A stretch of DNA of 64,000 bases. It comes from Candidatus Bathyarchaeia archaeon (GTDB taxonomy: Archaea > Thermoproteota > Bathyarchaeia > Bathyarchaeales > Bathycorpusculaceae). The position numbers and the translations under genes are program-made. Each line of letters starts with the position of its first letter. The stretch's first letter is position 1. The notes under the pieces were generated by a model. It was not told where the DNA came from, searched no databases, and saw only the letters and a list, made by a program, of their open reading frames with translations. Location of the stretch: the NCBI GenBank assembly GCA_038727135.1, contig JAVYWL010000001.1:544001-608000 (forward strand), given 5' to 3'. This document shows, one piece after another, positions 12,108-17,537 of this stretch.

Positions 12108-12190
12108 GGCGTTTCGCCTTTCAAACCATGCAGAACAGCAACCAAAATAAATGTTGTGGAAATTAGAATATTCGGGCATTAAACGAAAAC

Positions 12191-12239
12191 ATGCTTGAAG
12201 AGCGTACCAAAATGAGCGAGGGTTGGTGTGTCTGGGTTA
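12191..12239 (+). pseudogene. Stranded original 5' end of the APS-kinase-like gene, (MLEERTK)MSEGWCVWV
   Basis: Encodes the same EGWCVWV as the N-terminus of 16986..17537; host-like composition upstream. Confidence 0.85.
12218..12239 (+). repeat. attL core GAGGGTTGGTGTGTCTGGGTTA
   Basis: Identical to 16992..17013. Confidence 0.95.
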
Positions 12240-12291
12240 GGATACCACTATTATTATTGTCATTAGTAGTGTTATTACTTATATTTTCCAT
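12218..12291 (-). other. Putative int(N) fragment of split integrase (MENISNNTTNDNNNSGILTQTHQP)
   Basis: ATG at 12291 preceded by GAGGG; in frame with int(C) across the att core when ends are joined. Confidence 0.7.
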
Positions 12292-12408
12292 CTTATTCCC
12301 TCAAATCTTATGTAGAGTAGAATAATTATTAAATTTTGTTAAAACTTATTTTTTAAGGGTATTTAAATAGGAGTAGAGATAAGAATAATATTGACCTCTA
12401 TGAGTAGA
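12292..12408. promoter_or_regulatory. Divergent promoter region of the element
   Basis: Palindromic TATTTAAATA at 12360-12369; GAGTAGA at 12315, 12371 and 12402. Confidence 0.5.
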
Positions 12409-12645
12409 AAAGTAAAATTGTATGAGAGAGTGGAGCCTCCCCAAATTGTAAGACCCAGAAGAGTGGCAGAGTATGATGAACTTATTAAATCCATTGAAAG
12501 TGAACCAAAGGGATGGTATAAGGTGACAATTCCTAACAGAAAGCCTTCCACAATCTTTGTGGCTCTAGCTAAAAAACTCAGAGGTAGAAGAGACCTTAAA
12601 CTCCATTTCATAAACAAAACAGTATACATTGAAAAAATAGAATAG
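12400..12645 (+). CDS. Small basic hypothetical protein, possibly DNA-binding
   Basis: 81-aa K/R-rich ORF divergent from int(N). Confidence 0.7.
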   Translation: MSRKVKLYERVEPPQIVRPRRVAEYDELIKSIESEPKGWYKVTIPNRKPSTIFVALAKKLRGRRDLKLHFINKTVYIEKIE

Positions 12646-12773
12646 ATTCCTCTAATCTATATATATTAAGAGTTAAATCTAAGACAATTCCAAGTTCTAA
12701 ATAGTTACAGTACAATATAACAGTAAGGTTTAAAAGCCACTATACTACTTCTTGTACTACTTGGTGATAGGGT

Positions 12774-13531
12774 ATGTCTGATTCAAATATATTGTACCAT
12801 AAATCAAGAGATTGCATTATTGCCTCTAACTTTATTGAAGACCTTCCAATGAATTTGTCTGACTTAGAACAAAGAGCTATAGTAATATCAGCATTGGAAA
12901 AGCTAAAACAAAGTTTGAAAAATACTGATGTAATAACAGACATAGATATTCAGACTATTAGGCTTTATTGTTCTAAAATATTGGATTTAATAGATTATTT
13001 AGAAAAACAAAATAGTGAAAGCTATACGAAACTTATCAAATATCTAAAGGATACATTGAACATTTTAGAAGAATATATAAGAAGCTATTACCATAAGGTG
13101 GAAGCACTCCCAGAATATTCTAGATATGAAAAAGAGTACTGGGGAAGATATTTTACTGACAAGGATTATTATCCACCTTCTTATTATTACTGGAACAAAT
13201 ACACATCTAAAAGTAAACCCATCTTTAAATATATTGATAGAATTACTGGTAAATTAGAATTGACTGAAGAGGCTAAAGATGCAATATTCAGGGAAATAAC
13301 TGTACCTGACAGTAGAAAATACATTTGGGACAGACCTGAAATGACATTTGAGGAATTGATGCAGTATACTTTGGAAAAGTTACAAGAAAGACCAATGAGC
13401 TTAGGTCTAAAAGATTAGAACTTGAGGCTAAAGAACAACAAGAATTATCCCAAGACCCTTTACATGAAAAGATGGAATTTCTACTAAATGTTTGGTTACC
13501 TTGGGAGAAAAAGAGAATGGAGGAACAGTAA
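12774..13531 (+). CDS. Hypothetical helical, Tyr-rich protein with apparent -1 frameshift near 13352-13415
   Basis: SD GGTGA; ORF stops at 13418 but the -1 frame continues KTNELRSKRLELEAKEQQEL...RMEEQ to TAA 13531, abutting the next ATG. Confidence 0.65.
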
Positions 13532-13532
13532 A

Positions 13533-13817
13533 ATGTCTAGGGAAATAGAACACATTAGTCTCCTACAGTTATTAAGTCACAATCCCTTAACACTAGGAGA
13601 GTTAGCTAAGCTAACTTGTGTTAATTCTGAAGCTAAACTCAATGTAATCCTAAACAAACTTGTCAAAAGAGGCTTTCTTGTAAAGTCTAAGACTATAGAT
13701 AATAGGAATCAATATATTATTACTTCTAGAGGATTGCTCTATTTATTCTACAAAATTATGGATAGGAAATTAAAAGAAGGTGATACCTATGTCACAGAAT
13801 CTAGAACAAACCCTTAA
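13533..13817 (+). CDS. Winged-helix (MarR/ArsR-like) DNA-binding protein
   Basis: PLTLGELAKL...LNKLVKRGFL...YIITSRG; SD GGAGG. Confidence 0.8.
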   Translation: MSREIEHISLLQLLSHNPLTLGELAKLTCVNSEAKLNVILNKLVKRGFLVKSKTIDNRNQYIITSRGLLYLFYKIMDRKLKEGDTYVTESRTNP

Positions 13818-14169
13818 ATCTCTAGAGGAAAGGATTAAAGAATTGGAGACTAAGTTTAAGGCTTTATCCTCTATCTTAGGTGAATATGTTGCACAACTAC
13901 AAGTTCTAGAGGAATCTCTAGTTAATACTAGAAATATTAAGAACACTATGACATTAGAAAAGAACAGTCTAGATTCCTATGCATATGATACTCAAGGAAC
14001 AACACCTAGAGAAAGACACATTGAACCTTCTATTCCACTATCTTCTCTAGCATTTGCTACTATTGAAGACTATGAAACTCCTACAGATGAATTGAAAAGA
14101 AAAATAGCTAATGTAGCAGAGCTTATAATAAAGACTGGTAACAAACTAGACTACATAAGTGCAAGATGA
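13789..14169 (+). CDS. Coiled-coil hypothetical protein
   Basis: Heptads LEQTLKSLEERIKELETKF; SD AAGGTGA. Confidence 0.7.
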   Translation: MSQNLEQTLKSLEERIKELETKFKALSSILGEYVAQLQVLEESLVNTRNIKNTMTLEKNSLDSYAYDTQGTTPRERHIEPSIPLSSLAFATIEDYETPTDELKRKIANVAELIIKTGNKLDYISAR

Positions 14170-14215
14170 CAAAAATAGGGGGACTTCATCTTGTCCCCAT
14201 ATCAAGGTGGTGCCT

Positions 14216-14881
14216 ATGTCCCAACAAGTTAAATATGATGGAATGACTTTATTAAGATTTCCAGAACCTAAAAGAGATTATTGCTACAATGTTGGTAGAC
14301 TTAAAGAAGTGTTGGTTTCAGATTTGTCTGATGATATTCTCAATGATTTAGCAGAATTGCACTTTACATTGAAAGATAAGAATGCTGATGTTGTCTATAC
14401 AAAGACTAATTTAGCTCTTGAAGTTATGAATGTCTATAAACCTATACTGGATTATACTAGAATTAGAAGAATAAAGTCTAATCTTAAAGGATATAAATAC
14501 AAAGGCATCATAGTCTCAAGAATGTCTAAAGCCATGAAAAGAAGACTAAAAGGCATTCCTATCTTAGAACTTGGTTTCCAATTGCTTCCTTCTCATTATA
14601 TTTCCTTCTATAGTAGTAGACATTCCACTAAATATAGAAAATTTGTTAATAAGAGGACTATTAAGTATCTAGTTAACTGCCTATATTCTTTCTTTTTGAA
14701 GATTGGAGCTATTAAAAAGACTGTTTCCTCTAATAAGCCTAAATCTAGTTATGTAAATTCTATAGTAAATTCAAGGTTTAGTTTTAGGATAGACAATGTT
14801 AGGGATATTGTTGAAGACTTTTTGGAATATGTTTATCCATGGTTTTTAGAGGAGAGGGTAGGGTGGTTGTATGAAGGTTAG
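14216..14881 (+). CDS. Putative PD-(D/E)xK nuclease-fold protein
   Basis: GRLKE ... ADVV ... ALEVMN ... KGIIVS spacing; SD AAGGTGG; function inferred by eye. Confidence 0.5.
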   Translation: MSQQVKYDGMTLLRFPEPKRDYCYNVGRLKEVLVSDLSDDILNDLAELHFTLKDKNADVVYTKTNLALEVMNVYKPILDYTRIRRIKSNLKGYKYKGIIVSRMSKAMKRRLKGIPILELGFQLLPSHYISFYSSRHSTKYRKFVNKRTIKYLVNCLYSFFLKIGAIKKTVSSNKPKSSYVNSIVNSRFSFRIDNVRDIVEDFLEYVYPWFLEERVGWLYEG

Positions 14882-15223
14882 CAGAGTAGCCTAGTTGAAT
14901 TCTTCAATGTACCAGTGGTAACTCTAAAAGATATCAAACAAGACCCTAAAATAGAATTTAATTGTTACTGCTGCACTAAGTCTAGATACTGTAGCAAATT
15001 CCAAGACTTTCTTGTTCTAAGAGAGAAGCTAAAAGGAATGAAACAATTAGCTTTGGATAGCAATATAATCAAAGCAAAAGAGGACTATAAACACTTGTTA
15101 AGGGAACTAAAGAAGGTAAGAAGTCTAATATGGAAATGTACAAGAAGAAGAACCTTTCTATTTGGACTAGGCTACAAGACATTTAGAATAGGTGGTATAG
15201 ATGAAAGAAGATGTAGAAGTTAA
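14871..15223 (+). CDS. Cys-rich basic protein with upstream in-frame PIP box; start disrupted or recoded
   Basis: CYCC-x5-C; QSSLVEFF encoded at 14882-14905 in frame; ATG 14871 is one base out of frame. Confidence 0.55.
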
Positions 15224-15533
15224 AACTGTTACTAAAGGAGTGATAGCAGGATTTACTAAATCCATAAATAGGATTAACAGATTAATAACTAAGAATCCTA
15301 AAAAGAGGAGTTTGATAAGAAGGTTAGAGAGAATTGGTAAATGCAATAATTGTAGTAGACCCTTTCAATTGGGTGAACAGTTCATACAAGTAGGACACAA
15401 TAAGTATCACTTAGAATGCTACAATAAAGCATTTCTAGAAGTACCTGATGACTTTACTCCAGAAGAGACATATTTTATAGAATATGGTACTATTCCATCT
15501 TATATAGTAAATACAGACAGTAAACACACATAA
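15201..15533 (+). CDS. Zinc-finger protein (C-x2-C-x18-H-x2-C, LIM-like)
   Basis: CNNCSRPFQLGEQFIQVGHNKYHLEC; SD AGGTGG. Confidence 0.7.
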   Translation: MKEDVEVKTVTKGVIAGFTKSINRINRLITKNPKKRSLIRRLERIGKCNNCSRPFQLGEQFIQVGHNKYHLECYNKAFLEVPDDFTPEETYFIEYGTIPSYIVNTDSKHT

Positions 15534-15548
15534 TGTAATAGAGTCAAA

Positions 15549-15593
15549 CCCTCTCCTCTTTTTCTCTTCTCTTTTTACTTTTGTTTCCTTTTG
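15549..15593 (+). terminator. Pyrimidine/T-rich terminator of the element operon
   Basis: Several T-runs directly after the last + strand ORF. Confidence 0.55.
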
Positions 15594-15602
15594 ACCATAA
15601 CC

Positions 15603-15910
15603 AAACCATAGGTTAGAACATAGACAGAGCCTATCTATGGAGATTTTTGTCAGTTCTTTTATAGGGTCTTGAAAAACTCCATTACTTATTTAGGATATAT
15701 CTAGACTAATCTAGAAACATAAAGAATAAAGAAAGACAAAAGGAAAAGCCAAAAGAAAACATAGACAAGACTCAAATTCTTTGTTTTTAAAGCACATTTT
15801 TATCTCTTATAGATTAGTGTAAGTGTATAGATAACACACATTTAACATTCAAAATAGAACATAGTGGAAGTGTGTTAAGGACATAGCCATTTAAGCCTAA
15901 CCTATGGTTT
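15603..15910. repeat. Non-coding block bounded by 14-bp inverted repeat AAACCATAGGTTAG, with internal hairpins
   Basis: 15603-15616 is the reverse complement of 15897-15910. Confidence 0.75.
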
Positions 15911-16084
15911 ATATCACACATTAAAAGGTCTATTTTGTATTGACTTGGATTCTAGACAAATTGAATTAGACAAATTAGACCTTAAACATGCCTTAATCTG
16001 GATTCTAAATAGGTGATTGGACCTAAACAAGGTGAAATATATTCGAATTGTATAGAATGTAGAAAAATAGAGGATATGGAAAAG

Positions 16085-17013
16085 CTATTTCCTTTTCCTA
16101 AAGAGCATTATGTTATCAAAGGTTGTAACATAGTCATAGCCTTGTTCTATCAGACTTTTAGCTTCCTCTATTGTTTTAGCTACTGAACATACCCATTCAT
16201 TCTCATTGAAATTGACAAGGTGTGTGTAGATGAGAGTGTTTTGAATGGAGACATGACCTAGAATTTCTTTAACATACAAGATGTCTCTGGTTTTGTAGTA
16301 GGTCATAGTAGCTTTAAAATGTCTAAGACTTCTTAGAGTAATCATGTTTATTCTTGGATTTCCAAGTTTCTCAGCTATTTGTTTCCTTTTCAGTCTTAAT
16401 CTATCAGCAAAGTCTTCTAGTTTACTCTTATCATTATGTTTGAAGATGTAGATACTTACTCTAGGCAATTGATTCAACATAGCAATTGTCTGATTGGAAA
16501 CTTTAACTATCCTAGCCCTACTACCCTTAGCTGGATTATTAATTATTATAGTGTTGTTCTCAGTATTAACATCAGACCATTTAAGATTCCAAGCTTCTAT
16601 TGGTCTAGCTCCAGTATCCTTGATTACCTGACAGAAGGCAGCATACTTTAGACTTAAGCCTCCAATTAGAGCATTGATTTCACTTTCTAATGGTACAAAT
16701 GGAAGTCTATTGGTTCTCTTGTACTTTGGCTTTTCAAAGTTTATCCCTAGATATTGACAGTACAGAGCATAAGCATCTACAAGCTTCTTCTTGTAACTGT
16801 CAAGGTTCTTATTGGATATGAAAGCCTTAACCTCTTCAACATTGTTCAAGTCTACATGTTTACCTAAGTGTTTCAGAGCATAACCAATGGTTCTTAAAGT
16901 TGATTCCTTGTAGCCCTTGTTCTTAAGGTCAATGAGTAGGTTTATGATATTCTGGTTTTGTTGTTTAGAGAGTGGGTAACTCATTATGGTTGAGGGTTGG
17001 TGTGTCTGGGTTA
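16085..17013 (-). CDS. int: Tyrosine recombinase/integrase, int(C) portion; internal ATG at 16984
   Basis: TGARPIE (R), AKGS (K), RSLRH, LGH, LIYTHL (Y). Confidence 0.95.
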
Positions 17014-17537
17014 CAGGGTTGCCGGGGAGCGGCAAGTCTGTTGTAGCGGAGACGCTTATCAAGTTTTTGCTTCAAAGGGGCATCCGCGCTCAACTTTTGT
17101 CTTCTGACGCTTTGCGTAAGGTTTTGACTCCTAAGCCAACATACTCGCTTGAGGAACGCGACATAGTTTACGCAACTCTTGTCTACATCGCTAAATTGCT
17201 AACGCAGAACGGTGTAAATGTTGTTATTGATGCCACTGGCAATTTGAGGCGTTATAGGGATAATGCCCGAAACCAAATCCAAAAGTTCATGGAAGCCTAC
17301 CTAGAATGCCCGCTTGAAATCTGCATTGAACGCGAATCCCGGAGGGCTGATACCCGCCAAGCGCCAAAACAAATCTATAAAAGAGCCTTGAAAGGCGAGG
17401 CGCCCACAGTACCCGGTGTTGGACAACCCTACGAGCCCCCACTGAACCCGGAAATAACAGTGAATACCGCCGAGTGCACGCCGGAGCAAGCAGCCCATAA
17501 AATACTTGAGGTTATTATTGGCAAGTGGTACGCCTAA
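16986..17537 (+). CDS. Adenylylsulfate-kinase-like P-loop kinase (start codon supplied by the element)
   Basis: WVTGLPGSGKS, D-LRK-L, YLECPLEIC, PGV-QPYEPPLNPE. Confidence 0.88.
   Translation: MVEGWCVWVTGLPGSGKSVVAETLIKFLLQRGIRAQLLSSDALRKVLTPKPTYSLEERDIVYATLVYIAKLLTQNGVNVVIDATGNLRRYRDNARNQIQKFMEAYLECPLEICIERESRRADTRQAPKQIYKRALKGEAPTVPGVGQPYEPPLNPEITVNTAECTPEQAAHKILEVIIGKWYA
16992..17013 (+). repeat. attR core
   Basis: Identical to 12218..12239. Confidence 0.95.

Follow-up and report, generated by a model that had tools for sequence, protein, structure and literature searches.

A 4.8-kb archaeal element that replaces the start of an APS-kinase-like gene and probably splits its own integrase gene

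The start of an APS-kinase-like gene in an uncultured archaeon of hot springs (Candidatus Bathyarchaeia) is occupied by an integrated element of 4,774 bp, which lies in a 64,000-nucleotide (nt) stretch of contig JAVYWL010000001.1 (assembly GCA_038727135.1; hereafter the window, in whose coordinates positions are given) and which has provided the kinase with a start codon in the register of the one that it displaced. Here, we describe this element and argue that the arrangement as a whole is probably that of a cryptic element that replaces the start of its target gene and, in integrating, parts its own integrase gene, int, from the beginning of that gene. An earlier, sequence-only reading of the window had drawn this picture; its observation is confirmed and its interpretation supported by the comparisons with relatives, natural populations and integrase families set out below. 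The element combines known principles and is not a new kind of system; what it adds to them is an apparently independent clade of split integrases, a range of targets in that clade that takes in tRNA, RNase P RNA and protein genes, and integrase stubs that persist as the permanent head of the kinase gene.

The element is enclosed by an exact direct repeat of 22 nt, noticed in the sequence-only reading and forming the left and right attachment (att) sites, attL and attR (Table 1). The 22-mer occurs twice in the window, where no copy is expected (100 shuffles), and twice in the whole 1.55-Mb genome when up to three mismatches are allowed. G+C (GC) content is 0.28-0.35 between the copies as against 0.42-0.50 in the flanks, and the step between the two coincides with the repeat, with the end of the integrase gene and with the breakpoint of empty sites in both genomes and metagenomes. 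The repeats match a single copy at empty sites, as those of a site-specifically integrated mobile element should; a transposon target-site duplication does not fit, as empty sites already contain the 22 nt once.

Empty sites were sought in the 11 same-genus genomes with a full-length kinase, eight of which (G001, G005, G006, G007, G009, G011, G012 and G013) have a homologue of window 12130-12217 that runs directly into the kinase through one copy of the core, the kinase starting with ATG-GGC or TTG-GGC. The metallophosphoesterase gene upstream diverges from the kinase at these sites (the gap in G005 being ~30 nt), and its orthologues adjoin the kinase in G005, G003 and G004. The same empty state is found in nature, with metagenome contigs from four out of four hot-spring runs (three studies) carrying a joint from 12217 to 16992 that skips 4,774 nt and at which 22 letters fit either side; depth in those four runs is 100-800 over the flanks versus 0-40 over the element. 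The empty attB and the junction of left flank and kinase in relatives without the element, both of which the sequence-only reading had called for, are thus present in congeners and in metagenome contigs alike.

The gene that has been entered, orthologues of which occur in 34 of 41 related genomes, passes the Pfam APS_kinase threshold (107.5 bits, cut-off 21.1) and scores below the NCBIfam cut-offs (121.2 versus 138.7 for TIGR00455, and 127 versus 244 for NF002059), for which reason we label it APS-kinase-like and give it no firmer substrate name. PF01583 and the reading frames agree with the proposal that the core codes E-G-W-C-V-W-V near the start of this gene, and likewise borne out is the proposal that the host start (ATG AGC, 12212) is stranded on the left and that the element gives ATG GTT (16986) instead, both being in the same register. 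Codon 2 at the stranded start is Ser versus Gly in relatives, a difference of 1 nt. In the element arm of attR, the ATG stands exactly at the position of the host ATG, and the ATG of a 299-residue integrase open reading frame (ORF) is one base away on the other strand. A TATA-like box, TTTATGAT, sits antisense within the coding DNA of this ORF, and the corresponding segment is kept in the integrase stubs of three other genomes (G085, G074 and G057; see below); by its position, the box may be the promoter of the rebuilt kinase, brought in by the element.

The course of events that we propose begins with the integrase, which would have recombined the 22-bp core of the element (attP) with an identical attB at codons 3-10 of the kinase gene, which encode the first beta-strand ahead of the P-loop. 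ATG-GTT comes from the element at attR, probably along with a promoter in the antisense 5' part of int, and because this ATG-GTT matches the host start register the kinase stays a complete ORF with one residue changed. The first codons of the native kinase gene are stranded at attL together with their start codon and promoter. In the circular form, int most likely starts 27 codons further upstream, across the core, and since its start would then lie across the core in the circle, integration would part int from its promoter, its start codon and an 18-codon tail. Such a separation would constitute a built-in off-switch, as in the SSV-type integrases.

The same target has been used elsewhere in the order. 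A metagenome contig, L090, whose host matches G101 of another family, bears a 67%-identical integrase that abuts an orthologous kinase (56% identical), with TTG as the kinase start in the same register and GTG as the integrase start; in the integrase tree described below, the window and L090 integrases pair with support 100/99. In five genomes (G003, G004, G085, G074 and G057) only an integrase stub of 5-40 codons remains beside the kinase, namely ~5 integrase codons in G003 and G004, where the rest of the gap is occupied by a surface-protein gene, ~40 codons in G085, and ~40 frameshifted codons wedged between the upstream host gene and the kinase in G074 and G057. The kinase is intact in all five and begins with an element-type ATG or TTG, and the pairwise ratio of nonsynonymous to synonymous substitution (dN/dS) is 0.07 for G003-G004 and 0.09 for G085-G074, with 0.05 for the empty-site pair G005-G007; for the close pair G074-G057 it is 0.29 at a dS of merely 0.05. 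Judged by these ratios, the kinases of the stub genomes remain under purifying selection. As they are intact, with an element-type start and low dN/dS, the kinase evidently works from its donated 5' end, and this end evidently outlives the element. Stubs in five genomes of three genera, each beside a kinase under such selection, point to a functional donated gene head, and attR would outlive the element because the host becomes dependent on that head.

The arrangement in G003 and G004 was also considered as the native state and as the source of attP; weighing against this are the first integrase codons found at both loci, an element-derived mark. Between metallophosphoesterase and kinase, these two genomes hold a secreted surface protein of 618 residues (L029 3660-5516, G003) or 789 residues (L030 3765-6134, G004), apparently beta-helix-like, with a C-terminal anchor and a low GC content of 0.37-0.42. 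The gene ends ~80-100 nt before the integrase stub and may be leftover cargo of an older element; this allele is also seen in metagenome runs X2 and X3, as loose ends.

The integrase of the window element passes the Pfam threshold for PF00589 (59.7 bits, cut-off 27.1), and the nearest solved structure is XerA. In the alignment to XerA (5hxy and 4a8e), the residues R, K, second R, H and Y of the signature R...K...HxxR...H/W...Y, which we take from a review of archaeal integrases (PMC8371274), are correctly placed, with Arg for the His of HxxR (RSLR). It fails the XerA equivalog NF040815 (86.1 bits versus a cut-off of 220) and lacks the KxxR signature of the SSV/pTN3/pT26-2 family, having RxxR at that position; PF16795 is matched (E≤0.01) neither by the window integrase nor by any of the eight clade members tested. 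Of the 251 genomes of the order that were sampled, 158 have members of its family at E≤1e-40, often in several copies. At least seven copies lie in the source genome; five of them are of a zinc-ribbon form, and a tRNA-like sequence follows one of the five (L022). The family comes in two forms, a long one with an N-terminal zinc ribbon and a short one without it, and in a tree of 55 rows (61 loci entered, partial matches dropped) the 22 short-form rows group together, apart from the zinc-ribbon group, with support 81/96. No relative was found in a viral contig collection; a metagenome contig collection gave four loci, L090 alone being close, and integrated, a genome contig collection just one 27% bacterial match, and phage and plasmid collections generic integrases only (identity ≤30%).

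The window integrase (16085-16984) and that of L090 (1434-2333) both have Arg for the first His of the HxxR box (RSLRH), with HTLRH or HTFRH in the paralogues. A 46-49% relative, L110, has an upstream frame that is tRNA-like in look; aragorn called no tRNA there. The source genome carries another element of 5.1 kb outside the window (L068; G000 contig 1, ~307.8-313.0 kb), with a 30-nt repeat at tRNA-Cys and a 30-32%-identical short-form integrase.

The frame relations at the two ends of the element suggest that int is split by integration. On the minus strand, the integrase ATG 16984 is 7 nt from the core and the frame is open through the core, and in the same frame relative to the core the left end has ATG 12291, 18 codons upstream of it. 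Once the ends are joined the frame counts 18 + 9 + 299 = 326 codons, in agreement with the length and with the ATG, preceded by GAGGG, that had been read earlier from the joined ends. Translation from ATG 12291 would yield an integrase with an N-terminal extension of 27 residues, and the window element would owe this extension to the circular state.

We take an att site within the 5' end of int to be characteristic of the short-form clade, into which the window element fits. Immediately ahead of the first conserved helix, the frame of short-form members passes through the host target, be it a tRNA 3' end or another gene. A tRNA gene ends directly upstream on the same strand in eight of nine loci of a first batch; in a second batch, of 20 loci, the same holds for five, and three have the 3' end of an archaeal RNase P RNA there. 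One short-form locus has the 3' end of a TFS/RpoM-like gene upstream. Homologous integrases had been expected, on the sequence-only reading, to show both flanking repeats and a conserved in-frame ATG across att. Exact direct repeats of 15-46 nt do surround elements of 3.3-16.5 kb at 5/8 and 13/20 loci of the two batches, and an in-frame ATG is present across the joined ends in 13 of 18 relatives, in each case ≤35 codons from the core and followed by a hydrophilic tail; int(N), the N-terminal piece, is 13-35 codons long in the clade. In ten of the 18, the stretch from core to first helix contains no ATG, GTG or TTG, and for that reason these could be translated only across att. The proposal of a split-integrase element is supported by the in-frame core at the 5' end of int, although the integrase is no member of the SSV/pTN3 family, PF16795 being unmatched; the companion proposal, that a single event breaks int and rebuilds the host ORF, is good for the kinase, which is rebuilt, and for int is tempered by the survival of a complete 299-residue ORF with its own ATG.

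A number of observations weigh against the account given here, and some of them favour other explanations. The best placed of these holds that the integrase is simply the 299-residue protein from ATG 16984, that the core lies in its leader or promoter and that the 18-codon frame on the left is accidental, such that integration still uncouples int from its promoter and splits no protein. The window integrase ATG does stand three codons past the core, all conserved domains lie downstream of it, and for this reason the 27-residue extension is not needed for a working enzyme; relatives show homology only from about residue 8-13 of the 299-residue form onwards, start codons in or immediately after the core are present in L062, L064 and L070 as well, and L090 has GTG at the same position. 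The extension is of low complexity, and in such AT-rich DNA the chance of an accidental ATG before a stop is 16-34% (0.16-0.21 in shuffles, 0.28-0.34 over all positions of these elements). On the other side, ten relatives offer no start on the integrase side of the core and have to be read across att, each of the clade members examined has an open frame through the core, and the ATGs across the junction are far over chance, with a binomial P of 1e-6 to 1e-3 for chance rates of 0.19-0.34, a value that overstates the strength of the case because the relatives are not independent. The ATG is missing in five of the 18 (L068, L076, L078, L085 and L086), some of the repeats are short (three are of 15-17 nt) and automatically assigned, two of the rebuilt attB sites (L077 and L085) fall in mid-gene, and the in-element kinase promoter is a candidate read from the sequence. 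On balance, we think it rather unlikely that int is left unsplit. Under the split-gene account, int loses to integration mainly its promoter, its start and the 27-residue tail, and no domain.

A further set of these observations concerns mobility. With regard to the circular junction, the contigs of the four metagenome runs show skipping joints only, although contigs drop rare forms and the uncovered parts of the element are uninformative; searches of the viral and metagenome contig collections turned up no contiguous attP, and those of the 251 and 401 sampled genomes of the order no second intact kinase-targeting element with both ends. The island might accordingly be read as a fixed, immobile relic, whose exact repeats and intact ORFs merely reflect a recent integration and whose promoterless int is on its way to the stub state; the stubs in five genomes point to decay as the common fate, and no replication or transfer gene was recognised in Pfam, PHROGs, NCBIfam and Atlas searches of the element proteins. 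Set against this are the identity of the core copies at 22 of 22 positions, the fact that all eight element ORFs are open, the coexistence in nature of near-identical element-free populations, and element-like contigs of 92-97% identity that occur at low depth in other metagenome runs. We therefore regard a relic as improbable, and the start-replacing element may still be mobile today. A chance repeat or an assembly chimera without integration is, to our mind, next to inconceivable, as zero such repeats are expected and this one coincides with the GC step, the integrase end and the empty-site breakpoint; no point in its support was found.

Several known systems share features with the one described here. 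In the 'suicidal' (type I) integrases of SSV1, pTN3 and pT26-2, attP lies inside the int ORF, such that integration parts int(N) from int(C), the C-terminal piece, and removes the promoter; these integrases carry PF16795 and are ascribed a single origin, in hyperthermophiles (PMC8371274). On the split-gene account, the window system would work like an SSV-type integrase, with att in the 5' part of int, loss of the promoter on integration and a module that has its own directionality control. It nevertheless stands outside that family: the window integrase and the eight clade members tested match PF00589 only, the window integrase has RxxR instead of KxxR, int(N) would be just 13-35 codons long, and integration into the kinase leaves a full catalytic ORF that has an ATG of its own. 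Elements of the pTN3 type take over the 5' half of a tRNA gene and express that gene from their own DNA (PMC8371274). The window element resembles them in replacing the 5' part of its target by means of an apparently split-type integrase and differs in that its target is protein-coding, whose start codon and frame need restoring, and in that int and target are divergent. Thaumarchaeal elements in protein genes, such as NitEve-E2 (Krupovic et al. 2019, PMC6563490), likewise use an archaeal tyrosine integrase and a short att core within an ORF, and may give a missing codon, one of them supplying a replacement stop codon; the 14 cases described in its text are all 3'-distal, whereas here it is the 5' end and the start codon that are replaced. 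The dusA-specific elements, and SXT/R391 in prfC, also enter a conserved protein gene at its 5' end (10.1101/2021.06.18.448947; PMC5812530); unlike the present element, they are bacterial and have classical intact integrases, separate directionality factors and an att outside int. The chromosome-dimer resolvase XerA offers the best match among solved structures and aligns at the catalytic R, K, R, H and Y; in contrast to it, the window integrase is element-borne, belongs to a multi-copy family of variable target and reaches only 86 of the 220 bits.

In the literature found, 5'-end targeting of a protein gene with start replacement is reported for bacteria only (dusA and prfC), with tRNA 5' halves and protein-gene 3' ends as the archaeal cases, and neither an archaeal PF00589 split family nor a 5' protein-gene target is apparent among the 'suicidal integrase' papers listed from 2020 on, judged by their titles and the opening lines of their abstracts. 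More broadly, the evidence for and against leaves us evenly divided on whether these integrases form an independent Xer-like lineage (PF00589, not PF16795) of self-splitting enzymes that is abundant in this uncultured archaeal order, has its att site a few codons before the first int helix and has spread its targets from tRNA to RNase P RNA and protein genes, with a kinase branch in which the core is coding on both strands, the start (and probably the promoter) is donated, and an int stub of ~15-130 bp is kept as a permanent 5' end. If so, the self-cutting int design would have evolved more than once, as opposed to the single origin given in the review (PMC8371274), and the branch would present a route by which mobile-element DNA becomes fixed host gene-start sequence, together with an archaeal instance in which a protein gene is targeted at its 5' end and has its start replaced in register. 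The lineage would also furnish many natural variants with different targets for the study of specificity switching.

Table 1. Positions of the element, its parts and the adjoining host genes in the window
Feature	Position	Strand	Basis or remark
Left flanking host gene, calcineurin-like metallophosphoesterase, 282 residues	11331..12179	-	PF00149, 1.6e-17
Stranded native kinase 5' end, ATG 12191 and in-frame ATG 12212	12191..12217	+	Relatives G005 and G007 read the same upstream continuously into the kinase
attL fusion ORF, 44 residues: host N-terminus, core and hydrophobic element-read sequence	12191..12325	+	ORF list
attL, 22-nt core copy	12218..12239	unassigned	Exact repeat
Putative int(N), ATG + 17 codons	12238..12291	-	Shares the int(C) frame across the core when the ends are joined
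GAGGG, possible ribosome-binding site	12298..12302	-	6 nt upstream of ATG 12291
Seven cargo ORFs, all orphans	12400-12645, 12774-13418, 13488-13817, 13780-14169, 14159-14881, 14915-15223, 15201-15533	+	ORF list
Integrase int(C), 299 residues, own ATG, complete two-domain tyrosine recombinase	16085..16984	-	PF00589, 4e-16
TATA-like box TTTATGAT	16941..16948	+	Sequence inspection; ~40 nt upstream of the new kinase ATG
Element-supplied kinase start and codon 2, ATG GTT	16986..16991	+	Same ATG-GTT in G003 and G004; TTG in the same register in L090, G085, G074 and G057
APS-kinase-like P-loop kinase, 183 residues, rebuilt at attR	16986..17537	+	PF01583, 8.6e-31
attR, 22-nt core copy	16992..17013	unassigned	Plus strand codes E-G-W-C-V-W-V, minus strand T-Q-T-H-Q-P

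Besides int, the element holds the seven cargo ORFs of Table 1. Searches of Pfam, PHROGs and NCBIfam assigned them no significant family, except for a weak match (8e-4) of ORF 13488-13817 to a MarR-type winged helix-turn-helix, and Atlas gave no usable match. The cargo DNA was found in none of the 13 congeners searched (0/13), and related elements have the integrase alone in common with that of the window.

What the native kinase promoter and start now head, at attL, is the 44-residue ORF, whose tail is strongly hydrophobic; this ORF is antisense to the putative int(N) start, and could by its location be expressed or interfere with int. The element-like contigs of runs X3 and X5 have a 2-nt deletion (window 12302-12303) at or beside the GAGGG upstream of ATG 12291.

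Among the other members of the clade, the three short-form integrases directly 3' of an archaeal RNase P RNA gene (RF00373) are those of L078 (G030), L086 (G085) and L087 (G045), in elements of 4.6-6.6 kb with repeats of 19-25 nt. Two of them, L078 and L086, have a stop before the far copy of the core and hence no ATG across the junction, but in the integrated state there is an in-frame ATG on the host side. For the same-clade integrase of L074 (G206), the att core of 24 nt falls at the 3' end of the TFS/RpoM-like zinc-ribbon gene, another target that is protein-coding, here 3'-distal. Finally, L081 (G019) and L083 (G082) carry sister integrases with a similar non-tRNA core (TGGGACGGC...), in elements of 9.0 and 5.8 kb.

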